Positions 13,901 through 63,070 of a DNA stretch of 64,000 bases are shown here, piece by piece. Below the pieces are notes generated by a model, which was not told where the DNA came from, made no database searches, and saw only the letters and a list, made by a program, of their open reading frames with translations. This DNA comes from Owenia fusiformis (taxonomy: Eukaryota). The stretch covers positions 6,076,001-6,140,000 of the forward strand of contig CAIIXF020000001.1 of NCBI GenBank assembly GCA_903813345.2. Reading direction: 5' to 3'. Position numbers and translations under genes: made by a program. Every line of letters begins with the position of its first letter. Position 1 is the first letter of the stretch.

Positions 13901-16900
13901 AAAATCTGTAAAGCAAACTACATGTGTAAACAATTAGCAGGTATGAGATAAGAATACATATATTAAGTTAGGTGATTAGTGAAACTTCTGTTAATATTGG
14001 CTTCAACTTTAAGTCTTACTATCTCTGTAGAAATCTCCCTATCTGCTCCCACAACCATCTTATCACATTATCAGTGCCTCACACTGTATGGTGGGGGGTA
14101 TTTGAGAGTACTTTTACCTTATACCTTTTTTACCTTATACAGACTGCAGAGAGGTTCTTTGTGGAGGCTGACTACACTAAGGAGGCAATAGAGATGTACA
14201 ATGCTGCAGGCAAATGGGAGGATGCACACAGACTGGCTGCTACATGTATGAAACAGGAAGATGTGGCTGCTCTATATATCCAACAGGCACAGGAATTAGA
14301 GACACAGGGACGATACAAGGAGGCTGAGAGGTAGGGGTTCACATGGAATCTACTACTATATATCAACTTTATAAGTCTATTTAATAAGAAATTCCACAAC
14401 CTCTGAACACATGGGTTCAGACATCATCTTTGGGAATATGTATACACCTATTTTGTTGATAAAAAGGAAGGAACAGAGTGGATCCAGGGGAGTGGATTTT
14501 GTCTACATCCTGCCATTTGGAAGATGAAATATCTGAATTATTTTAAATATATTCTTAAATATACTCATTCCCTATACTCATTTCCCAAATCATTGTTTTG
14601 GTATTACAGATTACCTGGATTTCATGCTCAGGCACAGACCATCTACCCTGTTCATTGTCTTCACATAGGCTATAATTAAGAAATATAGACCCAAGAGCAG
14701 GGGTAATATTGTTGAATACACCCTGCAGGGCTAGGCACAAACGTTTTCTGTACCCCAAACGACCAAAGGGAGTGAGGAGTTCGAAAGCTTTTGTGCCTAG
14801 CCCTAAGGCGTGTATTCGACGATATTATACCTGCTCTGAGGTCTATATTACGATTCGAACATGAAAACTCACCAAAATGTTTCGAATATTCATTATGGTC
14901 TGCTATAACTACGGCCCGCCGTTATGACGTCACACATTACACGTATTACCAGGGGTTTTGTTCGCGAATATACCCCGGGTGAAATGTTGACTTTGTTTAC
15001 AGTATGTAGAAGGCGTGAATACAGTCATGTTCGAATATCCTTCAATATATAATATATCTATATCCTATAGATATATTATACTTATAGGTTGTATGTGACA
15101 GTTGAAGAGCCTGACCTGGCTATTACAATGTACAAGAAGGTGCGCATGTACAATGACATGGTGCGCCTTGTGAAAACATACCACAAGGAACTCCTACAAG
15201 ACACTCACATGCATCTTGCTGCGGTAAACACTCTTTTATTTGAAATTTATTGAAATGTTACCATTAAAGGGTATATGAAATCATCACAAGAAAGCCACAA
15301 TTAAATTAAATTTATTATTTGCTTAAATATTGTCAGTTCGTTTTTTTTGTTCATCAAATGAAATATTAAGGATATGGTAAAAAAGTAACAAATGAATTGA
15401 TGTTACTTTGCATCGGTTTAAAGAATGTTACCAAGATTGCAATTAGTCTAAATAATGTATTTATTTAGTTTACTTTCCTAAGTTTTTGAATATTATAAAC
15501 CACTCTCCTATACAGGGAACAGTTGCATATATGTAAAAAGGTACCATATTTGGCATTGGGAAAGTCAGAGGATTTTGTCCAAGCTGATACACTCAGAGGA
15601 GTAATTACTAATCATGTTATAAATACTGCTTATAACATTTGAATAACGTCTTATTTCCTCACTGTAGGAGCTTCAAAATGAGAACAATCTCCGGCAGGCT
15701 GAACATCACTACATTGAGGCCAAGAACTGGAAGGAAGCAGTTAATATGTACAGAAACAATGACAGCTGGGATGAGTCATATAGGGTAACAGATATCTCAC
15801 CCCCTCCCTATGTACTGCTTGTAAACGTGTCACCCCCTGCTTATGTACTGCTTATAACCCCAATTCTTTTCACTCCCATGAACTGCTTCTAAAGCTCATG
15901 TTTCAACCTCCCATGATCTGTTTGTAATCCCATTCTTTTCAATCCCCATGCTTCTAAAACTCATGTGTCACCCTCCCATGATCTGTTTGTAATCCCATTC
16001 TTTTCATTCCCCATGCTTCTAACACTCATGTGTCAACCTCCCATGAACTGCTTGTAATCCCATTCTTTTCATTCCCCATGCTTCTAACACTCATGTGTCA
16101 CTCTCCGATGAACTGCTTGTAATCCCATTCTTTTCACTCCCCATGTACACCTTTCATCTCAGAATGCCTCCTTGTCCTTCTGCCTGTCTCATCTCTTCTT
16201 TCTTTTATACTTTTATACTTATAACAGGATTTCTGCAACCAGGGATGCACCTACATTGTGTATTACTACTAACCTAATCATTCTTAATGCCACTATGGTC
16301 ATGCTTGTTCCTTTCTATTACTATGTTTTGTCATATCTATAAAATATGATGAAAAGCACAGGATTACTGATAAAAATCACAGAAACAGAAAATGTTTCCC
16401 ATTATCCAAACGTGTTTCATATATCTGAAAAACAATTTATTCCATGTGCCCCAGATATTATTTTATTCGATGCTTTTCAATCTTTTCCTCTCTTATATGC
16501 AAGCATGGTCACCGTGACATTGCACCTCACAATACCCTCTAGCTCAAGCCAATGCTTCTATTGGTTAAAAACTACAGTGTATATAGCTGTTCTAGGAATA
16601 TCAAAGGGTAGGCATGTATCGCAAGGCTGAGGAAAGTCATCTATTGGCTGAACGTTTGGGTAGCTGTATAGCTATGTATCATGAAGCAGATATGTGGGAG
16701 GATGCATATAGGGTATACATTGAATATAGCACACACAGGTTGAGACATGTCAGCCTAAGAACTGACCCTCCCACGTTATATAGTGGAGGCATGTCTTCAA
16801 TGTGGAGTGATCCTTTAGCTAATCCACTATAATTATTTTAATTCTTTTATTGTTGTAAATCTTACAAAAATTGTGTTTGTGGGAATATATTCCATTGTTT

Positions 16901-19900
16901 GACCTTATGGGTTGGGGTTACACCTAATATTTGCCCACATATCATTAATTACATTGTTCATTTTATTTAAAATGTTGATTTTTTTATTTAGTCTCACATC
17001 AAATATCTGGTTTCCTCTCCATCATATATTTTTCCGACCTTGTAAGAATGAGGGAAAATACAGTAGCCTTATGCAAGACTCAGTATTCATTCTATTTCTA
17101 TATAATTAGAACAGTAATTCTTTTATAAATGCAAACAAATAAACAGAAAGGAATTTAAATAAATTAATGCATAATATGTGAAAAATTCATTACAAATTTG
17201 TAAGGGTAAAATTAATTTTATTTTTTATTCTTTTATGTGATTTTATAATGTGTATTCAGTTGATATGATATATCGGCATGGAAATGCTAAAATTCTCTTT
17301 GTTGTAGGTGGCTAAGGCCCATGGGGGACCCAATGCTGCCAAGCAGGTGGCCTACCTTTGGGCAAAGAGTCTTGGAGGGGACTCAGCTGTGAAACTTCTC
17401 ACAAAGTTTGGTCTTTTGGAGGCAGCTATAGATTATGCATCAGAGAACTGGTAAAGTATTTAAAATTGACAACATTGATTTGAAAATAAATTTGATTGCC
17501 TATTATTGCAAATTATTACAGCTTAATCCAGATGTGTTTTACAGGTCACCCTATCAAAATGATTGTGATATTTTATTATTGATGTGGTCTGTTTCAGTGC
17601 ATTTGACTTTGCATTTGAGCTGTCAAGGACTGCCATGAAGAACAAGATGCCAGACATCCATCTGAAGTATGCCATGTTTCTTGAGGATGATGGCAAATTC
17701 CCTGAGGCTGAGCAACAGTTCATCAAAGCAAATAAACCCAAGGAGGCAGTTCTCATGTAAGATATATTGAACAATATATGGTTAGGGTTGATGATGTTGT
17801 TTATTTTAGAATTCAAGTTTGTTTACATGATTATCAGAGAGAATATGCAAACAAAACACTTCGATGAAATATTCATCTGATAAGTTTTAACCCCATTTCA
17901 ATGAAATAAACCTATTGATTAAAATATTCATCTGTAGGTATGTCCATAACCAAGACTGGGACTCTGCTGGGAGGGTGGCAGAGGAGCATGATCCTGACTC
18001 TATTAAGGATGTACTAGTAGGTCAGGCCAGAGTGGCATTTGAGGCTAAGGAATATCAGAAGGCAGAGTCTTACCTACTAAGAGCTCAGAGACCTGATGCT
18101 GCTGTAAAATATTATAAGGTATGGAATATAGTACTATTGATAGGGCTTAAATTGTAATCATATTAATTTTGATTAAAAATATTTTCTTCTATTCAAGGTT
18201 CAGAAAACTTTTAATATTTCTTAATTTTGGACCCTAATCTATCATTGAATCTGCAATTGATGAAATTAATGTCTACGTTATGTAGCAAATAACATTCAAG
18301 ATACTAGGAGACTGAACACAATAGCACCCCTTAGCAAATCGCTCCCATAATCTGTATCTAGTGATTTCAATTCTGGGCTTTTGGACCAAATATCTGTTTT
18401 GTGTTGGTCAGGAAGCAGACATGTGGCAGGATGCCCTTCGTGTTTGCAAGGAATATCTTCCCCACAAACTTCAGCAGCTGCAGGATGACTATGACAGAGA
18501 GATGATGGATAAAACTACAAGGTTAGTTTATTCTACATTTTGTAGGTAATTCTGCTGTATAGATAGTAGTTGTGGTTGCCATGGTGATCACACTACTTGT
18601 TGAATGAAAAGGAGAGTATGAAAATATGAAATATGTTCATTTTGAAAGATTTCCTTGTGATATTTACGTGAAATGTTTATTGAAAAAATCACATAGTTTA
18701 ACAAGCAGAATTTGTGATTCCATAGTGCTGCAGATTATATGAAAAGAGTAAATTGTAACATTTTGTTTTCTTATAATTATAGAGGGGCTGACAGTTTGGT
18801 ACAACAAGCCAGAGAGTGGGAGTCTTCTGGAGAGTATGCCAGAGCAGTGGACTGTTATGTAAAAGTTACACCTAAACACACATCTGACAACAACCTACTG
18901 CAGAAATGTTGGGTGAAGGTAAGCGGAACTGATCCAGATTTGTGAATCTATTTGTCCAAAAGCACAGTCTATAATATAATTATCTCATAATGTGGATCTG
19001 CAAAATGTCTGCATTATAAATTCAAAAGAATTTTCACCTCATCAACTGATTGCATCAACTGTTGCCTTACCCTGCCTGTATATACATTCAGTTTCCAAAC
19101 CAAGCTCAGTTGGGTGTAATGTTATCTGATCATTCTGTTTTAGGCTGGTGAGCTATCTCTCAAGTTCCTGACTCATGACAAAGGAGAGGCTGTGGTACAG
19201 ATTGTGGGACCAAGACTTGTTGAGATAGGAAAATATACAGCTGTATGTATTTATTAACCATTGCATATAAATAAATAGTGGCATTTTGTCATATAGCACC
19301 AAGGGGATTTTAGTTACTAAAACCTTCATCCAATGTTTTAGTTAGATTTTATGTGACTAACCATCATAGAAGAATTTACTGCATTTTAGGCAGCAGAGCT
19401 TTACCTCAGAGTTGACATGATAAAAGAAGCTATTGATGCCTTTATTGATGGGGAAGAATGGAATAAAGCAAAGAAAGTTGCCAAAGAATTGGAACCAAGG
19501 TAACTTTTTAAGAAAATATGTCTGTTCTAGTGTACGTATGAAATGGCTTTATGAGTATTGGTGTACCATTATTGGATGTAGCATTTTACTGTGCTATTTA
19601 TTTAAGTTAAGGTTGATGGAGTAGAATGATGTCTAATTTATGATTTATCCTTTCATGGCCACTTATATTTTTAACTCGGTAACTTGACATTGGGCTGTTT
19701 ATGTGTCTCTGGCAGTTTATTCAGAAATAAACTTGGATTCCTTGACTTAATGTTATAGATGGCATGGCTATATATGTGTAACCTTGCATATTCATTAGGG
19801 TCTCAAGTTATTGCATTGAAAGGCCACCATGGAAATATTTCACATATAAATATAAATATTGTATATTGTATTTCAGATATGAGGCATATGTTGATGAAAA

Positions 19901-29317: not shown

Positions 29318-30068
29318 TGTCAATACAAATTCAGTGTGTGGTGACGCGACGTCAGAACTGATGTTCGCGTTGGTGGAAGTCTAGCACAAAGTTTCATTGA
29401 AAATATGTTCTACTTTTAGTGATTTCATGTCTTATAGACGATTTTGTAGAAAACATTTTGCAATGTGTGAAAAGAATTTAGTCCAAGACTTAATGCATTG
29501 CGTAATTGTCCACTCCGTTCAAGCGTTGTTTCATAAATGATCACTCGATGCTTCGCATCTCGTGCAAATGTTGGAAAGCAACACATTCAAGGAATGGTCA
29601 TTTTACAGTGCACTGAGTCCAGGGCTTAAATCCTTAATTAAAGAATTGAATTATTGATAATCCTTCGTACACAACCAACACTGTTCCATCAGCAATGATG
29701 AACATATATTTGAAATTAAATGTTGCTCAAATTCATGAAGTTTTGATATACATTTCTACTTTTAATATCCTATGTGGTTTACTATTCGACCAATATGGTA
29801 CCTAGTTATTTGAATAATTTGAAAGCATACTTCAACTTAATAGTCACTCTGTATTCATTAGACATCACACATCTTGCGTTATAACATTAAACATCTTGCG
29901 CTATAAGTGACACTTGTAATGGAAATCAATGTAGAAAATTCAGGATTAACTAGATTCATCCCGTACTTTTAATGCTGACACTAAACTCGAAGAAACTGGG
30001 AGCGTAAAATACCAAGCTAAGTTGGTTAGGATCCAAACTTGGACCATACCAGGCACAGGTTAAATATA

Positions 30069-31736
30069 ATGCCTGCAGATGACGAGAATGAAGAAAAACC
30101 AAAAGAGAATAATTCTGGAAACGCTCGGAGCATTTTATCTAACTTTGCCTCCTCGACAACTGCGCATGGCTGTTCTCAGATCAATCAGTCCCAATCCTCC
30201 GTCGCTAAATGTGTGTGGCTCCTCATCTTCATTGGATGCACCATCGGGGCGATCATTTGTATCACTGCTCTCCTTCAGAAGTATTTTGCGTTTCCAACAA
30301 AGGATGTAATTGTTTTAAAAACAGGGGCCATCGCGGCACCCTCAATCAGTGTATGTAGCCTTAATCCGATTCCATCATCATTCAGGACGAGATTGAGTGG
30401 AATTGCACCAGACAACAAAGTTAATACAGTTCTGCGAGCATTGGATCTAGCGTCGGAGCGTGTCGCGAACACATCTTTCGGTTTACATGAGAAGCTGTCA
30501 GAATCATACCTAAGATTGAACTCTTACATATGGATCTATGAAAACGCACCGGGTGAAAACGAAACGTTGCAGTTTGCACATGAATTGGACGACCTCGTCG
30601 TGTCGTGTATGTACCAGGGCATCCCCTGTGACAAGTCAACAGTAAAGATTTTCACCAACCCTTACTTTTATAAATGCTACACATTCAACGCAATGGATTA
30701 CAATGATACATACAATGGACCCTTTATCCATTCTACCGGTACTAAAAGTGGGATCAGTATGTTATTTTTTCTAGACACACACGACTCAGGGGAGACACTT
30801 TATAACCCGTATTGTCCCCTTGGAGGCAACACGGGTGTACGTGTGGTAATACATCAGCCTGGTACAATACCAGATCCCTTCAATGACGGTTTTGATGTTG
30901 CTCCGGGTTATTCAACCAATGTCGGAATAACGAAAAGGAAACGGGAGCTACTTGGGCGACCCTGGGGAGACTGTGAGAGACGAGAGAAACTCGATGATGG
31001 GTTGCCGTTCTTATATGACAGGCGGTCTTGTAAGCTCCTTTGTCTACAGGCATTTGTCGCTGAAAGATGCGGATGTGTCACATCTTATCTACCCATATCA
31101 GAAAATATGAAAAACATTACTCGATGCGGCCAAATGGATTTGGAAAATTTTAATTCTGCGTCTCCTAACTTGACGACTCTAGAACATGAGTTGGACAGGT
31201 TAAGTTGTGAATTGAAATCGGTTTACGTCATACTTGACGATCAAGATGATGTTGACTGTGATTGCCCACAAAGCTGCGAACGTGATATTTATGACTACAC
31301 ACTGTCCCAGTCCGAGTGGCCCTCCGGAGGTGTTCAATTACATTTTTACCGACATATTGCCCACCTAAAAGGAGAGGCCTATTTCAACTCTTCTATGTAT
31401 CACCTTTTGGATGACAAAGTAAACACAAACGACAGCATGGTTAACATGAAGAACCAGAGAATGATCCAACAGAACTTTTTACGCGTCAATACATTTTTCA
31501 CTTCAATGGACACAGAAATTGTTAAACAGGTTGAGGAATATCCATTTACTGATATGATATCAGGTGTGGGTGGAGGGTTTGGTGTCTACGTAGGTTTCTC
31601 CATTGTCACTATGTGTGAGTTTTGTGTGCTGTTTGTGCATCTCCTACGAGCGATGATAATGGACAGAGAGAAGCGCAAAGTTAAGTCAGCTGAATTACAT
31701 TCGAGTAAGGTAATTCCAACAAAAACGGCATGGTGA
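30069..31736 (+). CDS. DEG/ENaC (amiloride-sensitive sodium channel) family subunit; single exon, 555 aa; possibly FaNaC-related
   Basis: First ATG at 30069. Pre-TM1 HG motif (FASSTTAHG), TM1 (VWLLIFIGCTIGAIICITALLQKYF), PSISVCSLNP, GVRVVIHQPG, Cys-rich thumb, TM2 with GxS belt (SGVGGGFGVYVGFSIVTMCEF). Confidence 0.95.
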   Translation: MPADDENEEKPKENNSGNARSILSNFASSTTAHGCSQINQSQSSVAKCVWLLIFIGCTIGAIICITALLQKYFAFPTKDVIVLKTGAIAAPSISVCSLNPIPSSFRTRLSGIAPDNKVNTVLRALDLASERVANTSFGLHEKLSESYLRLNSYIWIYENAPGENETLQFAHELDDLVVSCMYQGIPCDKSTVKIFTNPYFYKCYTFNAMDYNDTYNGPFIHSTGTKSGISMLFFLDTHDSGETLYNPYCPLGGNTGVRVVIHQPGTIPDPFNDGFDVAPGYSTNVGITKRKRELLGRPWGDCERREKLDDGLPFLYDRRSCKLLCLQAFVAERCGCVTSYLPISENMKNITRCGQMDLENFNSASPNLTTLEHELDRLSCELKSVYVILDDQDDVDCDCPQSCERDIYDYTLSQSEWPSGGVQLHFYRHIAHLKGEAYFNSSMYHLLDDKVNTNDSMVNMKNQRMIQQNFLRVNTFFTSMDTEIVKQVEEYPFTDMISGVGGGFGVYVGFSIVTMCEFCVLFVHLLRAMIMDREKRKVKSAELHSSKVIPTKTAW

Positions 31737-39532: not shown

Positions 39533-41135
39533 CTTTGCAATGCAGTTGTCATCTAAATTGATAAGAATAAAATGTTAAAACAATTTCTATAGTTTTACAC
39601 CAAAATAGGTTTTCGAATTTTTAGGAATAAACGTGTTGTGTAGTTTAAAGGACATCTAGAACGAGCTAGAGTAAAATATTAAAAGCAGTTTTTTAAAATT
39701 AGTGCTGATATTTCCCTTACAGTACGTTATAATACCATTTTGTCAAAAAATTGAGACATTTAAATTGAGACAATTTAAAGTTGTATCCTGGAACTGTTTT
39801 ACAGTTTAGAATATACATCTTGTCATTGAATGACAAAAACTATTGCAAAATTGTGAAAATGCGTATTCTTTCCAACCTCTCAACTCGAGACTCGTTTCAC
39901 TAAAAACAGTTTTATACCGTATCAGATTAAAAAAGAATTTCACTCTTCGATTATTCTAACCGAGCGGTTGGTAAAGTGATCGATTTCGTTTATAGCAGAT
40001 CTTTCTCACACACTAAATGCAAAAAAAGAATGGGTAGTATTTTTGACTCAACTAGTGGGGCCCCACTAGTATTCCAATATTGTTGGAAAAGCTAATGTGA
40101 ATTGTGGATGCCTGTCACATGCTGACATCTAACATCCATCAAGTAATTAGAAAATAACAAATGTATTTATATAGATGGAATAAAAATACATTTGGTTTTG
40201 CGATTGTTAGATCAAGAGATATCAATGCTGAAAGATCTGGCATTTAGATTTCATTAGCACTGGTCAGTGTCAAGCGAAGGTTACGACCGTCACCAAAAAA
40301 TCAAAAGATTCTGTTGGTTGACCTTTCCTGAGCACCTACTATTTTTCATTCACATTTTCAGAGGGCTAAAAAAGTTATTTCATCATGTTAATGGTCATTA
40401 TGACAATTTCCATTGTGTTCCCGGTCATGTAAATGATATGTGGAACTAGTTAAACTGACTGGAGGTCCAAACAAAAATCTGTTATCTTGGTTCAAAATAA
40501 TGTCAAAATCGAGCATGGTTTTGTCGCTTTTTGTTTTGTCATTTCCTGTTAACTTCCATGGCACCTTAAGATGTCGGACGGGAAGTGTCGATTTCTATAT
40601 TTTTTGCATCGAAATAAAATAAACTCTGGATTATTGTCATTTATTCATATATCGTGCGTGGGCGCCACAGTTCAACGATATCCTCTAACTCTATGGTCAC
40701 TTATTAAGTCACAGATGATCTTGATCACTTCTTGTGTGTTTCCAATTTTGTTTGGTAATTAGACCAAAACTTGCCATTCAAATTTTGAAATATCGATGTT
40801 GCATTCTGGCTGCCAATCCTCCTTGAGTGATTACCAGGCTAAGAAACGCATGATCTTCAACAATAGTGTCATGGGAATTCGACCAGCCGATGATCGAGTA
40901 CTGAGACATGTCAGAGTAGCATTAATTATTTTGCAGTTAATCACATCTACACAGAAGTATCAAATAAAATAAATGTAAAAAATGGTACTTGACTTCTAGA
41001 GTTATTATCAATACATACGTTCTCATCAGAAAAATTAATTATAGAAAAAGATAAATTAAGATTAAAAAATAAACCTTAGACTTTCACCATAAGATTAGGC
41101 GGCCTATATCCCGGGGTCAATATCGAGTTGCAAAT

Positions 41136-44100
41136 ATGTGGTCTTGGACGACAGGGGCCATCATTGTCATCGCAAATTTAGCTATATTAACGGAATCAAG
41201 GCTTGCTACAATAGATTCCGGACGTATCAACGGCTCAAGTATAAAACTAGACGATGGGACGGTGATAGATACGTGGTTCAATATACCATTTGCAAAACCG
41301 CCACTCGGCAACCTTCGATGGCGAGTAAGTTTTTTTTATTTATTTCATAGTTGTAATTCAATGTTCGATATCCATTGCATGTATGGTAAATTATTTGATA
41401 ATTATGGCATTTTACATCAATATGAAATATTAAGTAGGCCAGGCAAGTGATTTATTTGAACAGACTTGCGCACGGACGTCAAGCTGCTTAAAGCACATTT
41501 AAACTTATTTTTGATCCCAAGTTCATTTTCTCTCGTTTCTAGAAACTTATACGTAATACTCGTACTATATATCTTTTCATGTTACGTACAGTTGCCACAA
41601 CAACCAGATAATTGGACAGATGTACGAGATGCGACAAAGTTTGGGAACTGCTGCCCTCAGCTAAGTCTTCTTATCGACATAACAAATCCAGACTTTCACA
41701 ACTTTGAAGAGGACTGTCTCAATCTTAACGTATTCTCACCTGCGGTAAGATCCCATACTACACTACTACATTGTGTTCACGTGTTATCACGGGTTGTCAT
41801 CGAAAAATTTGTCCAGCTTGGGGGAGCATGTTATTTTTCATAAAAACACTAAAAAACTTCACAAATCATGTATGTTTCGTTACCAGCTTCCCCATGCATG
41901 AGTATTTAATTTGCAGATAACTTTCACTTCTATTTGAAGTCCAATAATGCTATAAGGAGTAAAAGGTATTGAAAACAGCACCAGAGTATCATACTCGAAA
42001 ATGTCCTTTTGTCAAGGAATATAAATGTCCATCTAATTTTTGTATATAAACAAAATATTTAAGAATTATAGACGGAGATCAATTAACAAAAGGGGTATAT
42101 TCAGGGCTGAAGATCATAGTCTTAACATCTATGGAGAGAGACAACTCATGTAACCCAATCCCGTTCTCTCGATCCCTCGAAACCATGGACCCATTGTGTG
42201 TAGAGTGCATAACACATTGTAATGGTTGATAAATTGTAGTCGGATGGCCTTTATCCTGTTATGGTGTGGCTCCACGGTGGTGCCTATACTGCCAGTGGCA
42301 ATGTTCAATACAATGGGCACTTTCTGGCCAGGAAGGGAGTCGTTGTCGTGTCAATCAACTACAGAGTTGGCATCCTAGGTAAAGCTTGTTATACATTATG
42401 TGCCTCTTATGATTTAAATGTTTCTTCGTCGGGAATTAACACGAAAAACTTACGCATACGTATCTATCTTTAATCACTGTCGGTAAGTACATGCATTCAT
42501 TTAATAGTAATTGTCAATTTACAATATTTCAGGATTCTTGACAACAGAGGACAGTGCGGCAACTGGAAATTATGGGATGCACGACCAGGTGAGAAATCTT
42601 CACTACACCATTTTAAATATTAAGTGTCATGTTAATTATGGTATTTCATGGAGTATACTGTAGATCAGTAGTGTTGAACTTGATCATATGTCTGTTGTAG
42701 GTTATGGCATTGCAATGGGTTCAGAAAAACATACGGAAAATGAAAGGTGACCCAAATAGAGTAACAATATTTGGTCAAAGTGCCGGAGCAAGTAGTTCAG
42801 GCTTGATGATTCTCTCCAAGAAAGCCCGTGGTAAGTATAATACTAATATGTTAAAGACACTGTTAAGATTTGGAACTCATTTGCACTTGTTAGCAGATGT
42901 TGAGGAGATGATGAACTAACTTTCCCATGGCAATGTTTCTTTATTCCTTTTTGTTTTGAATGTTTAATATCATATGATAACATTAGATAACATATTTAAG
43001 CAGGTTTTGATATATTCTGACCAATTCGTATCTTCATTTGGCGTTGATGTAATACTGACTTCAATTTTAGTTCACCATCTCTTTAAATTACGCCTATAAA
43101 CTTGATTGTGACGATCCGATTATGTACTCTGCCTACATTAGTGAATAAATCTAGCATCAAATGCATCTTGTTGCCTAGGTCTCTTCCATCAAGCCATCTG
43201 TCAAAGTGGGTCGGATATGGCGCCATGGGCTATCAACTACCCAGAGATGGGGCCGGCTTATTACACCAAAGAGCTGGTGAAACGTATCAATGAAAATCGT
43301 GGTGAAGATGATCCTATCATACCCACAAATAACAACACAGAGATGGTCGAAGCACTGAGGAAGGTGGATATATGGGACATGATGCTCGTAGATGATGTTC
43401 CAAGAAAGGCAAGAGTCATGAGCGTGCCATATAGTTATGGCTCTAATTGCTCACAATATTAACAATGAAAAGCATTACACAATCGCCAGATTCAATTTCT
43501 ATAAACGCGTGCATGAGCATGTATGACTATACACTGTCATCATGTCATTATAATTTTTAGAAAGGTTGGATCAGTCTTGGTTTTGTCCCTGTTGTTGATG
43601 GTCTTTATGGCATTCCCGAAAAGGATGCATTTCTGCACGACACACCTCCAAACCTGCGAGAGAAAAATGAGTTCGCGAAAGTCAACATTATGTCAGGATT
43701 AACAACTGAAGATGGTTCTCTATACGTACCCGCTGGTGAGTATACTAGAAACGTACGGATATATTTTTGGTAAATGAAATACAGATTCAACAAATCTATT
43801 TTAACTAATACCGTGTCGACCTACACCATATCATGAAATAATTCTTTCCAGTAATTCCTGATATATGGGATTTTCCTGATGGATACAGCAGAACTGAGTT
43901 TCTGGAACGATTAAAAAACATGTCTTATGAATTCTCTGATCCGAGCATCTCGGAAGTTATATATCAAGCCATGTCCTTTGAGTACTCTACGTATCCCCAC
44001 GTGGACGATGCAAAAGGCAACAGAGATAGACTTGTTGAGGTATGTACGCGAAACAAAACGACACTTGAAGATAATCAATAAATTAATATCACTTGTCGTG

Positions 44101-46605
44101 TTCAATGGCTTGCGGGCTCTTATTTCACGTGTAATTTTAAAAATTAATTATTTTTTATAATAAATGAAATTTTCGTTATTCATCGAACCTCTATTCAAGA
44201 TGGCATTGGGTTATAGTAGGGGATTTTCTGTTAGCAACTTCGTCTCTGGTGCTGCAGAGCATCATATAATGAAAATGAAACATAAACTAAAAAAACAAGG
44301 GGTATTATAATGGATGCTATCCGCGTCATTTGCATTTTCAGCTGTTTACCGATGTTGGATTTACCCATGGAATTGACCTTCAATTGTTGAACCACAACCA
44401 ATTCAACAGTACATATGAATATGTTATTGGTATGGTCACCTCAAATGTTACTGGAGCGGAAGGGATAGACGATCTTCATTGGATTGGTGAGTAAGCGCCT
44501 TGAGGTTTGTTTCTTCTGGGACGTAGACGCGTTTTGTCATAATGTTAATAATTGTATCATAATCGGCGCAAGATTGTTCTAAACAATTGTGCGTAGTAGT
44601 TTGATACATTCAGCATTGCATTTCAACCTGTTTTTAATCTCTGCAAATGTAACATAGATGAATTAGCGTGTTTGGACAATTAATATGAAGTTATATGAAG
44701 AAGTTAAGAAACGTATCATTCGTGTATTTTTGCTAATAAAGAGAACGGGGCCAAGAATAGAACCCTTTGGAACTCTACAATACACGCATGAATTGTGTAC
44801 ATTGCCCACTTTATTGAATGAACCGGTTGGGTCGGGCCATTGAAATGAGTTTTTAATATAGATTTAGCATAAATTAGACATATGGTGTTATGTGAAAGTT
44901 TGCACTAGAATTTAAGTCACATTAGGAACATACGATATCTATCACGTGGTACTAACTTCGACCGTTCATTTGAATTTTTGACCTACCAAGTGTTTGAAAA
45001 TCAAGGATTGCGAGTCTCATACTGCACCGTTTTTCTTCAAACTTGTTCCATTCAAAGTATAACAAAAATGCCTTTCTGTTGATACATTATTCTGCTATAC
45101 AGAGTCCCTACTTTCAGCGGCATTTGGGTCCCCAGCTGCGAGAAGGGCTTCTCACAACTGAGGACCAAAAACGCGGCTAAAACGAGGAACTCTTTACAAT
45201 AAAGCAATGTACCAACAGAAAGGCAATTTTGTTTTGCTTTGAATGGAACAAGTTTGAAGGAAAACGGTGCAGTATGAGACTCGCAGTCCTTGATTTTCAA
45301 ACACTTGGTAGGTCAAAAATTCAAATTAATCGTCGAAGTTAGTACCGCATGTACTTTATTTACAAACAATTGCTGCGCCAAAATGGAGTTGTTTAAAAAT
45401 CCATGCATGTTTAGGTAATCCCCATAGTGGCGATCTACCGTATGTATGGGGATGGCCGATGTTACAGGATAACCAAGCTGTCATGGATCAAACGGGTCAA
45501 TCGTCTCTTCTAGCAGGGGTTGTAGGATGGAACGAGCAAGACAAAAATGTGTCTGATTTCGTCATGACTCTCTGGACAAACTTTGCCAAGCATGGGTATG
45601 TTTGCAAATGCTATTTTTAGATAAGAAATTTTGTTATGTACGTCTCACTTTAAAAGGGTACTTAAGAGGCAAATATATCCCTTACTTGCCGTGTGATCCC
45701 ATTCATAGAAAACATGACCCCTTAAAATACAATTGTATTATTTGATTTACAGCAATCCTACCCCAACACCTGTAAATAATGTGACTTGGAAACAGTTCAC
45801 TCCTGCGGAGAGGAACTTCTTGTATATAGATCGTCCCGGGGAACATGAACCAAGGAAGGATTATCGGGTCCATCAACTTGCTTTTTGGCAAAGATTTGTC
45901 CCTTGGATTCTTAACCAAACTAGCGATGCCACGACTCCTGGTAAGTGGTGATAGACGTTTGAGGTCCTGCAAACTGCTACTGAATAAGGAGGAACAAAAA
46001 GGCCAATTTTGCATGAAACGTTTAAAATGTCGTGTTTAAAATTAATTACTTACTCATTTCTCATAAAGCAATTTTATTGGTGGTGTAATTCACGCTTGGT
46101 ACGACAATAAGATAGGAAAACATATGGGCAGTACTTGTAACAGATACAGATTGGTCAAACATTGCCATTCTTTGGAATGTCATAGAAAGTGAACTCTAAT
46201 ATAGCGAGATAAATAGTGCAAAAATAGTTCATTCATGGAACGAAGCGTGAAACTTTCCATGTATCATAAGAACATCATTCCATTTGATTTTTCAGTCAAT
46301 CTAGGGGACCATAAAAATGGCTCTGGCTCTTAAATCAAAGAGAATGGTGTTCTGATGATATGTGGAAAGTTTCACGCTTCATTCCGTGAATGAACTATTT
46401 GCAAAAACTCTGATCTGTTTATTTTTACAATTTTAAATAAGTATACGGCGGGTTAACCTCACTTCTTGCTTTAAAACTTGTAGCATCACCGCCCACCCCA
46501 ACTACCACAACAGTGAAAAGTAGCAGTGAATCATTGGGACTACGGAACAACGAGCTGCGATTTTGCTGGATGCTACTCAGCCTTGTATTGTTAGTGTTTG
46601 TGTAA
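41136..46605 (+). CDS. Type-B carboxylesterase / cholinesterase-like alpha/beta hydrolase, 631 aa, with signal peptide and putative GPI-anchor signal
   Basis: Exons 41136-41324, 41592-41744, 42240-42378, 42533-42588, 42701-42830, 43179-43408 (GC donor), 43561-43735, 43852-44039, 44342-44486, 45415-45595, 45753-45940, 46484-46605 (1896 nt). Motifs IPFAKPPLGNLRW, EDCLNLNVF, VMVWLHGGAY, GNYGMHDQ, FGQSAG, GLFHQAICQSG, GLTTEDG, HSGDLPYVWG, WTNFAKHGNP; hydrophobic C-terminus. Confidence 0.93.
44943..45351. mobile_element. Foldback MITE with long (~110-130 bp) near-perfect TIRs in an esterase intron
   Basis: 44948-45057 is the reverse complement of ~45237-45346 with few mismatches. Confidence 0.85.
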
Positions 46606-47853: not shown

Positions 47854-50800
47854 TCACATATTATGGACTGCGAGTGAAGCAATCAACAGAAATATTGAGA
47901 AACCAACAGTCACTGACCCCGACTGACCTGGAAAGTCGAAATATTCAATTTTACATTTCAGTGACATTTTTTCACTCAATCGTAAACGATTCTTGTATTG
48001 TAATGTACATGTCGTATAGTGTACTTTTGGTGTTTCCAAATTACCTTACATGACAAGCTAAAATTAACCATGCATACATATTTCTATCTTTAACATTTTC
48101 ACAAATAATCATTTTACCATTATCTGAATTTTTGTGGACTGAACTGCAATAATAAAGAAAATTGAATAAATAGAAAAATGTTCCAATTTCTATTGGCCCA
48201 CCCTGTAATCTAGTGTGACGTTGACCTCTGAAAGTGCAAAATATTTCAACCGGACCGTACGCTAAAATTTCCAAGACATTAGAGGTTGAAAGTGTACATT
48301 AAGTGTCAGGGAAACAGTTATATTATTACTATTATCATTTTCTGTAAAAAGGTTTTGAGATAATTATATATTATTTTATATAAATTAATGAGGGGGATTA
48401 AAGATTGAGTAAATATGTGTAGAGAATTAGGGCCTACATTTATTTTATGTGAACATTGCATGTAGCATTTACTTCAAGAAGGTAAATAACCACGTTTGCT
48501 GTACTTACCACCAAAAAGGTTGAATAGAAATCCACTGTTACTCTGGGAATTATCACCGCAATCTTCTTCATCATCTGCATCAGGACAGTTTGCAACATCA
48601 TCGCATACCTAAATATTGACAAAGAGGCAATTGAGTTAGTTTGATTCGGAATATATACAGAAATCGGTCAAATTGGTATGGCTTGTGTGATTTGTTTGTT
48701 CTCAGCTAGACAGAATATTGTAAATGGTTAAAGTCACCTCGGTTTCCTCAATACAGGATGATGTGTCCAAGCAGGAATATTGGGCAAACTGACAAATAGA
48801 TGTATTGGAAGAATTAGTTGATAGAGTATCTTCATCTGTTGCAGTCGCAGTACCTTCATTTGTAGTTGTCAAACTACCTCCATTTGTTGATGTCACTGTA
48901 CCTTCATTTGTAGCAGTCGAAGTACGTTCATTTGTAGACGTCGCAGAACCATTATCCGTAGCTGTCAAACCACTTATTTCTGTTGATGTTATAGCACTAC
49001 CATCTGTAGTTGTGGTAGTACCTTCATTTGTAGTTATTTTAGTTCCTTCATCTGTTGTCGTCATTGTAACGTCATCTGTCGTAACACCATCATTTGTAGC
49101 TGTTAATGTTATTTTATTTGGAGCTGTCGTAGTAGCTTCTTCTGTTGTCAATATTGTACTTTCATCTGTTGTCGTCGTTACACCATCATTTGTAGTCATA
49201 GGTATAGTATCATTTTTAGTTGTCATAGTACCTTCATATGAAGATGTTGTTGATAAAAAGCCGCCATCTAGAGTAGTACTAGTACCATCAATTGTTGTCA
49301 CAATGGTGCTTACAACTGGAAGTAACTCAACTGTCATAATTATATAACATTAACACAGCATTGATAAATTAGCAATTATTACACTGAATATGATATTTTG
49401 GCACAGCAAAATATTACATCGATTAATGAATCTATGTATCAATTGTAATTATTTCTAGTGAAATGAGAAATATATAGTTGTAATATAGTTTCTTCATTGT
49501 TGTTCTCATAGAACCTTCATTGTACTTGTACATTTATCATCAGTTTACATGAATATCATCCTACCATACAATGATGTTCATCAACGTGATTGTTCGTTTT
49601 TTCTTATTGCCTATTTATACAATATGAAGACATTGACATATTCAAGGAAACGATATTTACATATTGTGTAAAATCATGTTATGGATAATTGTAAATATAT
49701 GTTTATTAAAATCGCTTACTCGGACATACATCTGTGTTGCAGTCATCACTTTCTGTTTCACTTAACTGACGAGTTTCTCCATCAGCAGCCAAACAAGCAT
49801 CTCCACCATGATCAGGTGCTGGATTGTCACATGACCTAGAACGTGTCTTTGTACCTCCGCCGCACGTGCTAGAGCAGGAACCGAATTCTGACCATTCACT
49901 CCATCCTCCATTGACTGTTTTGAAAACAAACATCATAAATGAATGGCATTGATAATATTTTTAATTATATAAATTATATTTACATGCATCTCGCTTTTGA
50001 AAACCTCTTATGGTTAATTTTGAATATATGTTAATCGCTTACTCGGACATTCATCTGTGTTGCAGTCATCACTTTCTGTTTCACTTGACTGACGAGTTTC
50101 CCCATCAGCAGCCAAACAAGCATCTCCACCATGATCAGGTGCTGGAGTGTCGCATGACCTAGAACGTGTCTTTGTACCTCCACCGCAAGTGGTAGAGCAG
50201 GAACCAAATGCTGACCAGTCACTCCATGCTCCATCGACTGTTTTGAAAACAAACATCATAAATGAATGGCATTGATAATATTTTTAATTATATAAATTAT
50301 ATTTACATGCATCTCGCTTTTGAAAACCTCTTATGGTTAATTTTGAATATATGTTAATCGCTTACTCGGACATTCATCTGTGTTGCAGTCATCACTTTCT
50401 GTTTCACTTAACTGATGAGTTTCCCCATCAGCAGCCAAACAAGCATCTCCACCATGATCAGGTGCTGGATTGTCACATGACCTAGAACGTGTCTTTGTAC
50501 CTCCGCCGCACGTGCTAGAGCAGGAACCGAATTCTGACCATTCATTCCATCCTCCGTTGACTGTTTTGAAAATAAATATCATATATGACCAGTATTGATC
50601 ATATTTAAAAGAGATATCCTCCCAACCGCCGTTAACTGGACATAGCCAATAATCATGATAGTCAGTCTACAGGGTGGGCCAATAAAAATTGGAACATTTT
50701 TCTATTTGTTTAATAGTCTCTATTTTTGCAGTTAAATCCGCATTTAACATTTTCACAAATAATTATTTTACCATTATCTGAATATTTGTGGGCTGAACTG

Positions 50801-58300: not shown

Positions 58301-61300
58301 TCACATATTATGGACTGTGAGCGAAGCAAGCAACAGAAATATTGAGAAACCAACAGTCACTGACCCCGACTGACCTGGAAAGTCGAAATATTCAATTATA
58401 CATTTCAGTGACATTTTTTCACTCAATCGTAAACGTAAACGATTCTTGTATTGTAATATTCAATTATTAATTTTACATGCATTCTGCCGAGTCTAGTTAT
58501 GAACTACCCGAAGACGAAGTTCTCTTTTAAGAAGCGAAGTCGAACGAATGCAAAGAGTACATACATTCCAGTGACATATTATTGATTACTGTCAAATCTA
58601 GGGTTTAAAACTATTCCACATAACACAATTAATATAAAAGATGTGTTTAGTGTCTCTAAATCACCTTTAATTCTATCTCTTTGAACCCAGAGATTGCACA
58701 ATAAGAGTTTGCGAGAGCACTTTAGAAGTGTCCGACAAACATTCATATTATTACCATAATTGTTATTTACAGAAAAGGGGTTTTACGGTTTTAACATATT
58801 ATTCTATTTATTTTGTATACATTATTGAATGGGAATAAAAATTGAGTGAAACGTGAAGACAATTAGGGCCTTCATTTATTTTATGTGATAATTGTTTCTT
58901 CAAGAAGGTAGCTGGCCAGGTTAGCTGTACTTACCGCCAAAAAGGGAACCAGCCGAACCCAAGTTCAAGTTGAATAAAAATGCAGTGTTACTCTGTGAAT
59001 TATCACCGCAATCTTCTTCATCATCTGCATCAGGACAGTTTGCAACATCATCGCATACCTAAATATTGACAAAGAGGCAAATTGAGTTAGTTGATTTGGA
59101 ATACAGCTGAAATTCTAAATCTCTTTGCATACTGATATATAACCTGGAAATGGAGATACTTCATTGCGTATACGTCCAATAGTTCCAATTATCTTTAAAC
59201 ATAAAGAATGCAAATCCACAGTTAAGAAATGGGTTAGTCACCTCGGTTTCCTCAATACAGGACGATGTGTCCAAACAGGAATATTGGCCAAACTGACAAG
59301 TAGATGTATTGGTTGTTGCAACAGTATCATCTGTCGCCGTCGTAGTGCCTTCATTTGTAGCTGCAACAGAACCTTTATCTGTTGACGGCACAATAAGTTC
59401 ATATGTAGATGTCGACGTACCTTTATATGTAGACGTCGCAGAACTATTATTTGTAGCTATCAGAATACCTGTATGTGTCGACGTCACAGTATCTTCATCT
59501 GTAGGTTTTATAATACCGCCATCTGTAGTTGTAATAGTACCTTCATTTGTAGTTATTTGAGTTCCTTCATCTGTCATCATTGTAACTTCGTCTGTCGTCA
59601 TCATAACGTCATCATTTGTAGCTGTCATAGTATATTCATTGGTAGTTGTCAATGTTTCTTCATTTGAAGCTGTTATAGTGACTTCTTCTGTTGTCAAGAT
59701 TGTACTTTCATCACGTGTAGCTGTCATAGTATTGGTAGTTGTCAATGTTTCTTCATTTGAAGCTGTTATAGTGACTTCTTCTGTTGTCAACATTGTACTT
59801 TCATCACGTGTAGCTGTCATAGTATTGGTAGTTGTCAATGTTTCTTCATTTGAAGCTGTTATAGTGACTTCTTCTGTTGTCAACATTGTACTTTCATCAC
59901 GTGTAGCTGTCATAGTATTGGTAGTTGTCAATGTTTCTTCGTTTCGAGCTGTTATACTGACTTCTGTCGTCAACATTGCACTTTCATCCGTCGTTGTCAT
60001 AACACCATCATCTGTATTTGTCATTGTAACTTCATTTGAAGGCGTAAGTGCACCCTCTGATGTTGTTGACACAACGCCAACATATAGAGTCGTTGTTGTA
60101 TCCTCAATTGTGGTCGCCATAGTGCCCCCATCTGGAAGTTGTTCAACTGTCTTAATTGCATAATATTAACACAGCACTGTTAAGAAACCAATTGTGACAC
60201 TGAATATGATCTTTTGTCAAAGCAAAATGCTTTGAATCTACAGGGTCTCAAAAATGAACTCAGTATCAACAGCACAGATAAACCAGTCAATATGGTCAGA
60301 CATTTTACGTGATCATGTATAAAGCATGTACGCTTTCTCCCCAATACAACGTTTCTAGTCCAGCCTTGCCTTTTAATTGATATAACCCTTTTTACACCAC
60401 ATGATCAATGTAACCTCCTCTTATTTCGATGACAGCCTGGATTCTTACTGCCACATTGTTCATCACATTTGTTAATGTCTCCGGTGCAGTGTTTTGAATT
60501 TCTCTTCACATGTTTGCCTTAAGTTGTTCTATGTCTCTTAGCTTGGGATGAGCATAAACATGGTTCTTCAAGAAGTTCCAGATAAAACGTCCTGAGTGTC
60601 AAATCTTTTGAATAGGAACTTAGGAAGGTCCTCACAATGTATTTATACTGAGAGATCAGACGTTCAAGAACATGCGTTCATAGGAATTCTCGTGTGGCCA
60701 TTGCTGTGATTAGAGGGGTTCAATCTTTTCGAACCCTGTGTTCTCATTTGAATATTATTCGGTGTTCGAGCTAGCCTGTGTAACTCCGGAATCATTTGAA
60801 GATAATTGACCTGATTCTCTGTGATTGTTCCGCCGCCGTCATCTTTGAACGGCTATTTGACGGAGCAAAAAGTCCAACATCCGAAAAGAACTTTGAAGCA
60901 TTCCACCAGAAACATTATCAAATGTGACAAACAATTTAACAGAAAGGATGTAGGCTATCCTCGAAATATTAAATAAAAACTTAACTTTATATTGGGGAGA
61001 AAACGTACGTGCTACAGCTATATGCCATAACATATTGAGTGTTTTTTCTCAAATGACTAACAAAGATACAACCATGTTCAAAAAGCACAGTCTTTGACTC
61101 GATAAAGAAGAATTATTAAAGCTCATCAAGAATGGACGATCTTGCACATGTACTCAAACAAGAAACTGTCTATATATGCTGTTGCTCATTGTGGTAGTTA
61201 ATGTTAACTGAAACATTCACATTGATGTTGGAATGTAATTCATTATTTGGACATTTCAAACATGCATCATTGAATGATAGCCACATTGCTCAAATAGTTA

Positions 61301-62360
61301 CATTCTTTGCCGGTCGAATAATCATTTTATATCTTTAGACTAATTATGATCTTTGAATTATAATTAAGCCGGTGTAAAAGGGTGGGAGGTCCTATCAAAT
61401 TGTGGTCCTACTCTCCATTGATTTATCTGGTGACCTCAATACAACTCTTTTCCTCATTATCTTATAAGAAAGTGGACCATTATCCCTGGGGGACCATCAT
61501 TTCTTTCACATCGGCGACACTGCACTTTTTCCGATACCTTTAACGCAATTTAAAAATGTATCATTGATTTTGAACGATGGCCAAACGATTTGTGCTTTTC
61601 TCACCCGGACATTCATCTGTGTTGCACTCATCATTTTCTGTTTCACTTAGCTGACGAGTTTCCCCATCAGCAGCCAAACAAGCATCTCCACCATGGTCAG
61701 GTGCAGGAGTGTCACATGACCTAGAACGTGTCTTTGTACCTCCACCGCACGTGGTAGAGCAGGAACCAAAGGCTGACCATTCACTCCATCCTCCATTGAC
61801 TGTTTTGAAAACATCATGAGCAAAATATGTTGATCTTCAGGCCCGTGGCCAGAATTTTCCAAAGGGGGGGGGGTTCACTTTTCCAAAAATTCTAAGGGGG
61901 GTTCACTTTGGCAAATTTGGCCAAAAATCACTCAAAAAATAGTAAGAATGGTGAAAAACTGCATGATTTTGAAAAAAAATTTGGCCAGGGGGGGGGGGTT
62001 CACCAGAACCCCCCTTGGCTACGGGCCTGTTCTTTGTGATTGTTAGGTTTTCATTATTACCTATTCACAATGCGAAAACATTTGCATATTCAAGGAAACG
62101 ATACATGCATTTCGTTTTCAAGATCATGTTATGGATAACTGAAAATAGAAATAAAAGTTGCTTACTTGGACATTCGTCTGTGTTGCAGTCATCACTTTCT
62201 GTTTCACTTAACTGACGAGTTTCCCCATCAGCAGCCAAACAAGCATCTCCACCATGATCAGGTGCTGGATTGTCACATAACCTAGAACGTGTCTTTGTAC
62301 CTCCACCACACGTGTTAGTGCAAGAGCCAAATGCTGACCAGTCACTCCATGCTCCATCGA
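58301..62360 (-). CDS. TSR - mucin - LDLa - GPI-signal protein (copy B; 5' part not in window or unresolved)
   Basis: Minus-strand exons: 62360-62166 and 61799-61605 (TSR, 195 nt each); 60146-59242 (mucin + first half of LDLa); 59058-58935; 58374-58301 ([24 protein letters not shown]). TSR, LDLa and terminal exons are nearly identical to copy A. Confidence 0.85.
59641..59940 (-). repeat. 93-bp (31-aa) coding tandem repeat, ~3 units, in the copy B mucin exon
   Basis: [31 protein letters not shown] repeated; unit starts at 59641, 59734, 59827 and 59920. Confidence 0.95.
60241..61100 (-). mobile_element. Decayed Tc1/mariner-superfamily transposon
   Basis: TA|CAGGGT TIR-like end at 60241. The minus strand encodes a broken transposase C-terminus, [36 protein letters not shown]...[17 protein letters not shown]. 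The far boundary is approximate. Confidence 0.7.
61838..62029. mobile_element. MITE, hAT5-like (imperfect 5-bp TSD)
   Basis: ATCTT|CAGGCCCGTGGCCA ... TGGCTACGGGCCTG|TTCTT; a related left end lies at ~35831. Confidence 0.7.
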
Positions 62361-63070
62361 CTGTTTTGAAAACAAACATCATAAATGAATGGCATTGATA
62401 ATATTTTGTTATATAAATTATATTTACAAAAATGCTGAACAATCAACCGATCCTTTGTTGACTGTTTTGGAAAGAAACTTCAGAAATGAATAGAGTAAAT
62501 CATCTTTTTAATTGCTTCGTTCTATTATTTAATCTATTTAAAACTATTCGAGGGGTGATCAATAAGTAATGGACGTTTTTTACACATATACTTCTATAGA
62601 CCAATCCCTTTGATTTTCCTACCAGTGATACATTATTCAATTATCTATCAATTACTCAGATGCGAGTATGTAGTTACCAGTTTCGCCACCAGGTGGCTGA
62701 TTCGGGGGAATTAACATAGCAGGGTATTACAAAAGTCCCTTAAACTTGAATATGCATCAGTTTTAGTGGTTCACTTTTCATATTACCATTATGTATCTAA
62801 TAGTTATACAAATTAAAGAAAATATTATCTGCTCTACATAAGAAAAAATAGTTCACTTTTTGTGGTTTTACAACATGGGGTCTATGGGGAATCTCCCCGA
62901 CCTAGAAGTCACATTTTCAAAGAAAATTAAATTTTCAGAGTTGATTAGCTCTTTTCAAAACCACATTTCTAAATGTAATTTTACATGTACATTCCAAATA
63001 TGACATCAGTTTGACTGAATTGTGAATTTTTATGACGTAAATCAAGATTATTTCTACTCGCATCTGGGAC

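Follow-up and report, generated by a model that had tools for sequence, protein, structure and literature searches.

In a 64,000-nt stretch of contig CAIIXF020000001.1 of the annelid Owenia fusiformis (the window; all coordinates are positions within it), we found an intronic segment of the IFT172 gene, segment B (16596-16712, plus strand), which is open over its 117 nt, would be in phase 0/0 if spliced, and contains a diverged repeat unit of IFT172 that is a candidate for an alternative exon. Judged by the searches described below, B is with certainty a genuine homologue of the IFT172 helical repeat, and it would represent an extra, strongly diverged copy of this 39-residue TPR-like unit. We consider it plausible, at slightly below an even chance, that B is an alternative exon maintained by selection. 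More tentatively, we propose that Owenia keeps a second, very old IFT172 unit whose inclusion would be confined to certain ciliated cell types or stages, replacing the neighbouring exon A or adding a 40th-odd repeat, and so giving cilium-type-specific IFT trains. We infer both that B would be spliced at all and that the choice would be A or B rather than A plus B.

Segment B, its neighbouring exons and sequence constraint

IFT172, a core single-copy subunit, occupies the plus strand from ~4950 to ~25820. A search with exon A plus one codon returned the named Owenia IFT172 homologue (P0003, 1753 amino acids) with 100% identity to exon A, and P0003 was placed on the window by tblastn. When its 35 GT..AG junctions were rebuilt, the joined translation was exactly P0003. 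The protein is composed of old, mutually similar units of ~39 residues, which are conserved from placozoans to vertebrates, and exon A (15668-15784, plus strand; 117 nt, phase 0/0) encodes one of these TPR-like units, residues 1039-1077. The upstream constitutive exon (15088-15223, plus strand) encodes residues 993-1038, and its junctions (14330,15088) and (15223,15668) reproduce P0003 exactly; the downstream constitutive exon (17308-17450, plus strand; junctions (15784,17308) and (17450,17598)) encodes residues 1078-1125, the last codon being split by the next intron. The rebuilt junctions confirm 15223|15668 and 15784|17308, both in phase 0. Segment B lies 811 nt downstream of exon A, within the intron from exon A to the next exon.

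Exon A is translated as ELQNENNL...SYR and segment B as EYQRVGMY...AYR. BLASTP aligned the two without a gap, with 12/39 identities, 20/39 positives and a pairwise E of 2e-7. The preliminary description of this DNA had stated that both segments are 117 nt long, open, in phase 0/0, flanked by AG and GT and alignable without gaps, and had listed the residues that they share; translation, BLASTP and the rebuilt junctions bore this out, and the 12 identical residues are those it listed. Its statement that exon A is closer to canonical IFT172 was equally sound, as mean identity to 84 orthologues was 24.2/39 for exon A and 13.8/39 for B. By this comparison, exon A is the canonical form of the repeat unit.

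Subsequently, the relationship of B to the IFT172 repeats was examined. A phmmer search with the 78-residue open reading frame (ORF) of B against 1.84 billion representative proteins gave 31 matches at E<=1e-3 (best E 2.2e-9). On a Pfam scan, 27 of these carried TPR domains of the IFT140/IFT172 type, and the other four, to which the ORF tail gave the match, were bacterial proteins with NHL or FG-GAP repeats. HMMER profiles built from 82-84 orthologues with Owenia excluded matched B in register (single-sequence search; E 5e-12 for unit A, 5e-14 for the unit designated 1210). With position-specific profiles of five IFT172 repeat units, also from 82-84 orthologues, none of ~3,725 stop-free 39-residue peptides sampled from the non-exonic DNA of the window reached the score of B on any of the five. 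Pfam gave no family for B alone or for the 78-residue ORF at E<=0.01, nor for exon A alone, B being too short for any threshold. B keeps the signature of the repeat (Y8, A11, E12, A18, M27, Y28, W34, D36, A37, R39 and V40) in the exact 39-residue register, and of the 17 positions with agreement among at least three of the five Owenia units it has the common residue at 11. The residues that are invariant within one unit are missing from B in every case (L2, E3, H14, W21, K22, N26 and R29 in that of unit A).

The open frame of B runs from stop to stop over 78 codons (16596 to 16832), and the proposed donor is no boundary of it. Beyond that donor the frame continues for 39 codons plus the stop (16713-16832, plus strand), and its codons 40-52 are similar to the stretch of protein after unit 1210. 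Splice signals were scored with a position weight matrix built from the 35 introns of the gene, with 815 GTs and 659 AGs as decoys. The donor of B scored 5.4 (exon A donor, 5.1), with 6 of the 35 real donors lower and 4.8% of decoy GTs as high; its acceptor scored 3.5, more than 7 of the 35 real acceptors, and 9.9% of decoy AGs reached that score. The splice signals of B are usable but weak, both lying in the lower part of the real range. Two other donors were rejected on scores under the real-donor minimum of 3.6: 16738|16739 (143 nt, out of frame; 2.0) and 16748|16749 (153 nt, in frame; 1.2), the latter of which would end 5 nt before the end of the invariant block described below. If used, B would be spliced from the donor at 15223, which would serve exon A or B alike, and would then replace exon A; alternatively, it would be spliced from the donor at 15784 and add a repeat. 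In both cases the acceptor at 17308 would be common to the exon A isoform and any B isoform. Either route would keep the frame, with one unit of the TPR solenoid swapped or added. The lengths of A and B are both multiples of 3, and double inclusion would also stay in frame.

Two kinds of observation suggest constraint on B. First, B shares only 54/117 bases with exon A and 56/117 with unit 1210 (third codon positions, 13/39 and 17/39), and yet the profiles aligned it without an insertion or deletion (indel) over residues 6-40 (unit A), 2-44 (unit 922) and 7-52 (unit 1210), that is, up to 46 residues. Variation was taken from contigs of the sequencing runs X1, X2, X5 and X6 (12 runs were searched, none on record as RNA); in the introns of the gene these gave 34 listed substitutions and 10 indel rows, indels being about a quarter of the listed variants. 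At such a distance, with more than half of the bases changed, and with indels this common, neutral decay should have broken the frame many times.

Second, a block of 212 nt (16542-16753, plus strand), which begins 54 nt before B and ends 41 nt after it, carries no listed haplotype difference. Contigs from three runs lie over B (X1, 16409-16896; X5, 16360-16824; X6, 16519-16720). All 15 X1 differences and the single X6 difference fall outside the block, and 1 of the 14 X5 differences is unlisted, so that at most one can lie inside. In the same contigs, nine variable sites are located at 16412-16541, within the 133 nt before the block, and the 22 nt directly after it (16754-16775) contain nine variable sites and four indel rows. 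The latter patch is hypervariable, with three different haplotypes whose paired 1-nt insertions and deletions restore the length. At the average intronic rate ~9 differences were expected in the block, and ~4 at the rate of the quietest other stretch; the chance of none is ~1e-4 to 0.02. In the real exons the contigs showed 6 differences in ~930 nt, all 6 at third codon positions. Codons 54-60 of the frame of B, worked by hand from the contig differences, vary non-synonymously between haplotypes. Because the differences beyond codon 53 are mostly amino-acid-changing, coding conservation does not extend there. No other ORF of at least 30 amino acids spans the block.

B had been described as an old, selected alternative exon. 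The repeat homology, the exon-like layout, the register kept without indels and the invariant block agree with that description, and its splicing is the part that gained no support from the contigs. X2 and X5 contigs join exons across GT..AG introns, and both runs therefore contain spliced RNA. X1 and X6, each of which has a contig over B, are DNA-like in that they show no splicing; some of their loose ends look like what we take to be a tagmentation adapter. Joints at the flanking exons were found at 15222>15667 (X2 and X5), 15783>17307 (X2) and 17449>17597 (X2 and X5).

Descent of segment B and competing explanations

Gapless identity of B to the Owenia units was 16/39 for unit 1210, 15/39 for unit 922, and 12/39 each for exon A (unit 1039) and unit 981. 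Exon A itself shares 7-15/39 with the other Owenia units, and the 12/39 between B and exon A falls within this range; the closeness of B to its neighbour thus does not exceed that found among ancient paralogous units. The 39-residue profile scores were effectively tied (unit A, 28.1 bits; unit 922, 27.0; unit 1210, 24.8). In a tree of B and the five units from each of 16 species (39 columns, quick method), each unit formed its own clade with a Shimodaira-Hasegawa-like approximate likelihood ratio (SH-aLRT) support of 90-99, and B was placed outside all five, on a long branch beside unit 922 with a support of 29. The approximately unbiased (AU) test rejected neither a grouping of B with A (p 0.95) nor one with 1210 (p 0.91). 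B is nearer to the metazoan unit A consensus (up to 17/39; ending ...DMWEDAYR) than to Owenia's own exon A. On these comparisons, B is not demonstrably a copy of exon A, several units fitting about equally.

When the whole of P0003 was searched by tblastn, the intronic match was 16617-16751 against residues 1217-1261 (46.7% identity over 45 amino acids, E 3e-6), which comprise unit 1210 plus the residues that follow it. The profiles were then lengthened to 59 residues. The score of unit 1210 rose from 24.8 to 38.6 bits with residues 7-52 of B aligned, and the unit A match stopped at residue 40. With a profile of the unit-1210 tail, a fraction of 3e-4 of ~20,300 null peptides reached the score of B, and the tail profiles of the other four units did not match its continuation. 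In the gene the unit-1210 stretch is split by the intron 18118|18412, and the match in B crosses that junction without an intron. A short intron is present at or near the corresponding 1238|1239 junction in a metagenome locus from a distant eukaryote (L001); in the metagenome loci L001-L005 (for example, L001 2914-3102 and 3413-3556) the unit A exon has its end at, or close to, the position of the Owenia border (...AYR / V...). Both intron positions, after ...AYR and at 1238|1239, are probably old. Farther along the frame of B, MWSDPL (16797-16814, ORF residues 68-73) resembles MWSDAL of the unit-1210 consensus; with a profile score of -0.2 to 1.7 bits, this likeness is probably due to chance. 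The likeness of the tail, which we can explain only in part, is either an accident of roughly 1 in 100 to 1 in 1000, or B derives from an intron-less piece of the unit-1210 region that later gained exon-like borders. The view that B arose as a tandem copy of exon A was thus not sustained: the profiles are tied, the identity lies within the range of old units, B stands outside the unit clades and the likeness to unit 1210 passes the donor.

Several observations weigh against an alternative exon, and many of them are what would be expected of a dead relic, that is, a leftover IFT172 coding fragment (for example, a copy of unit 1210 made from spliced RNA, or an abandoned exon copy) that is never spliced and whose exon-like features are partly coincidence. 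Similarity to unit 1210 persists for a further 13 residues after the proposed donor, which would not be expected of a segment that originated from exon A and suggests that the stretch after the GT was once coding. This match, the best single one in the Owenia protein, spans a junction without its probably old intron and runs through the donor; beyond residue 39 it is like unit 1210 only (a gain of 14 bits). The splice borders of B come cheaply: the AG of the acceptor belongs to the TAG stop with which the frame opens, forming its final two bases, and the GT of the donor is the Val codon of the conserved R-V of the repeat. The acceptor is 53% pyrimidine, whereas real acceptors average 66% and go down to 47%. 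B has also lost the loop residues that the units share at positions 20-24, including Ala24, which is invariant in 5/5 units. Moreover, the argument from variation rests on about three haplotypes, and other parts of the intron are quiet as well, with one difference in 16776-16896 and no substitution in 17053-17155.

The contigs point in the same direction. One X2 contig joins exon A straight to the next exon (15783>17307) and skips B; X2 has no contig on 16276-17227, though one of its contigs joins across that stretch. The contigs over B from X5, X1 and X6 run unspliced through one or both of its proposed splice sites, and no joint touching 16596 or 16712 was found among the joints listed (15 of 29), in contigs that drop rare variants and cannot show absence. 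The junction check suggested beforehand therefore came out in part, the joints 15223>15668 and 15784>17308 being seen and none to or from B being present among those listed. Since B is skipped in the sampled RNA, any use of it must be rare, or stage- or cell-type-specific. Mutually exclusive use of A and B, which the preliminary description considered probable, is not borne out: only the form containing A was seen, B appears only in unspliced contigs, and the frame enforces no exclusivity. Nor was there a convincing pair of competing docking and selector RNA helices. Two AT-rich inverted repeats pair 16308-16328 with 17133-17153 and 15459-15477 with 17146-17164; a separate scan recovered one of the two, as it did in 9 of 100 dinucleotide shuffles, and pairing of this kind would enclose B, or both exons, in a loop and would not act as a switch.

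Protein and metagenome records also weigh against use of B as an exon. A single Owenia IFT172 protein came to light; it contains exon A and stands alone in its 90% cluster, and the protein collection is apparently without Owenia transcript contigs. We examined 184 IFT172 proteins of at least 900 amino acids, including the isoform sets of ten mollusc and other clusters, of which 183 had a match over unit A. No B-type unit was present in these 183, among which Owenia is the sole named annelid; the highest identity to B was 17/39, and all were of the A type apart from one garbled annotation. Annotated IFT172 isoforms differ by a few residues in length and show no same-length swap. In a word-index search with B plus one codon, no longer protein shared three 5-residue words, a weak negative because isoforms hide in 90% clusters. 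In five metagenome IFT172 loci of distant eukaryotes (L001-L005), no second unit was found in the same intron after ...AYR (best E 0.69), and the five metagenome matches to B were rejected as B-type units, being canonical unit A exons of other eukaryotes. In the fish records P0035 and P0036, query residues 1000-1300 match twice, and unit A is garbled and in part doubled in one record of the set; these doubled or garbled records look like assembly or annotation artefacts. Relaxed constraint on Owenia exon A after a duplication was not seen, identity of Owenia to other species being 0.70 against 0.73 among the other species (ratio 0.96), which counts in favour of a relic.

Against a relic stand the 46 codons kept in register and the 78 kept open at ~50% base divergence in an indel-rich intron, as well as the 212 nt without a listed haplotype difference. 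There is no flanking poly(A) tract, and tblastn with the whole protein at E<=1e-3 found no other extra piece in the window. The donor of B furthermore scores as well as that of the real exon A. We regard a relic as somewhat unlikely though a serious rival, and favour an alternative exon under selection at the tentative level given at the outset.

It is improbable, in our view, that the block serves another role, as a regulatory element or as part of a retained-intron or intronically polyadenylated transcript, with the IFT172-like frame as its raw material. The X5 contig of exon A continues 91 nt into the intron, to 15875, and further X5 contigs lie unspliced on 16226-16389, 16360-16824 and 17053-17155, while the two introns next to it are removed in X5 contigs. 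An AATAAA is present near 17137, and the frame of exon A, read through into the intron, stops at 15890-15892. This X5 pattern suggests retention or another transcript in this intron rather than inclusion of B, and over 15785-17227 the intron may be retained or intronically polyadenylated. The reach of the block to both sides of B and the contigs over B from the DNA-like X1 and X6 also fit such a role. However, contig depths cannot rank parts of the gene, and for an unrelated element the position on an IFT172-like open frame would be a coincidence. Regulated alternative exons also show flanking intronic conservation of such size. A structured RNA in the block was rejected: Rfam gave no match in 14300-17400 at E<=1, and folding of the block gave nothing unusual or stable on either strand (z +1.2 and +0.7).

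Finally, that an ordinary intronic open frame resembles a low-complexity helical repeat by chance, as the identity of only 31% to exon A, the lack of a Pfam family for B alone and the four bacterial phmmer matches might suggest, has next to no probability and is close to refuted by the phmmer, null-peptide and profile results.

Other features of the window

The intron between exon A and B contains a 65-nt tandem repeat of 4.6 copies (15843-16145; Tandem Repeats Finder, 89% matches, score 428). In the intron between the borders 14330 and 15088, contigs of all four runs pile up at 14644-15051 with summed word depths of 10^4 to 10^5 and many internal joints and loose ends; this stretch looks like a very abundant repeated or mobile element. 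The minus-strand ORFs 14555-14824 and 559-918 share a motif, ...LCLAL.GVF..ITPAL.... Other genes in the ORF list are located at 30030-31736 (+), 41073-46035 (+), 48702-50666 (-) and 59161-62442 (-). Judging from their motifs, we take a single open frame of 568 amino acids to be a DEG/ENaC-type channel-like protein and a multi-exon gene with FGQSAGA to be esterase-like; two stretches beside Thr-rich, mucin-like repeats are presumably thrombospondin type-1-like repeats (WSEWS..CS.TCGGG).

Relation to known systems

B was compared with four known kinds of element. It is like a processed pseudogene fragment in that its best parent match crosses an exon junction without an intron. Unlike a processed pseudogene, it carries no poly(A) tract and is not flanked by more of the parental sequence (no search for target-site duplications was made), and its frame is intact, with 78 codons without a stop and no indel despite saturated silent sites. 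With the TPR-like units of IFT172 (Pfam TPR_IF140-IFT172, PF24762, and related families) B shares the signature and the 39-residue register, and it differs from every one of them in lacking the unit-specific invariant residues and loop residues 21-24.

In Chlamydomonas trains, IFT-B2 is roofed by the TPR arm of IFT172, which also supplies part of the site that binds dynein-2 (PMC10191852). Use of B would alter one unit and would thereby change the surface of the TPR arm, and cilium-type-specific IFT trains would then arise by alternative splicing of a core IFT-B subunit. This would be a simple genetic route to different IFT trains in a species that has many types of cilia as larva and adult. 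Should B be unused, an exon-like fragment that passes all sequence-only tests would show that junction reads are needed before mutually exclusive exons are called. In the titles and abstract openings examined from the literature on IFT172, the phrase "mutually exclusive" concerns, for example, protein binding and not splicing.

Unannotated tandemly duplicated exons have been found by sequence search, with statistical support from RNA-seq for their expression (PMC9013439). B is like these exons in being an unannotated exon-like duplicate in an intron of a conserved gene, and unlike them, with their RNA-seq support, in appearing in contigs only unspliced. For mutually exclusive exons, the WebScipio criteria are similar length, conservation of splice sites and frame, no in-frame stop and homology to the neighbouring exon above 15% (PMC3228551). 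B agrees with all of these sequence criteria, its length being identical to that of exon A. It departs from a mutually exclusive pair in that two other units of IFT172 are at least as close to it as its neighbour is, in that its similarity passes the donor, and in that the lengths are multiples of 3, which would leave double inclusion in frame. By the sequence criteria, B fits the known class of tandem-duplicated alternative exon candidates.

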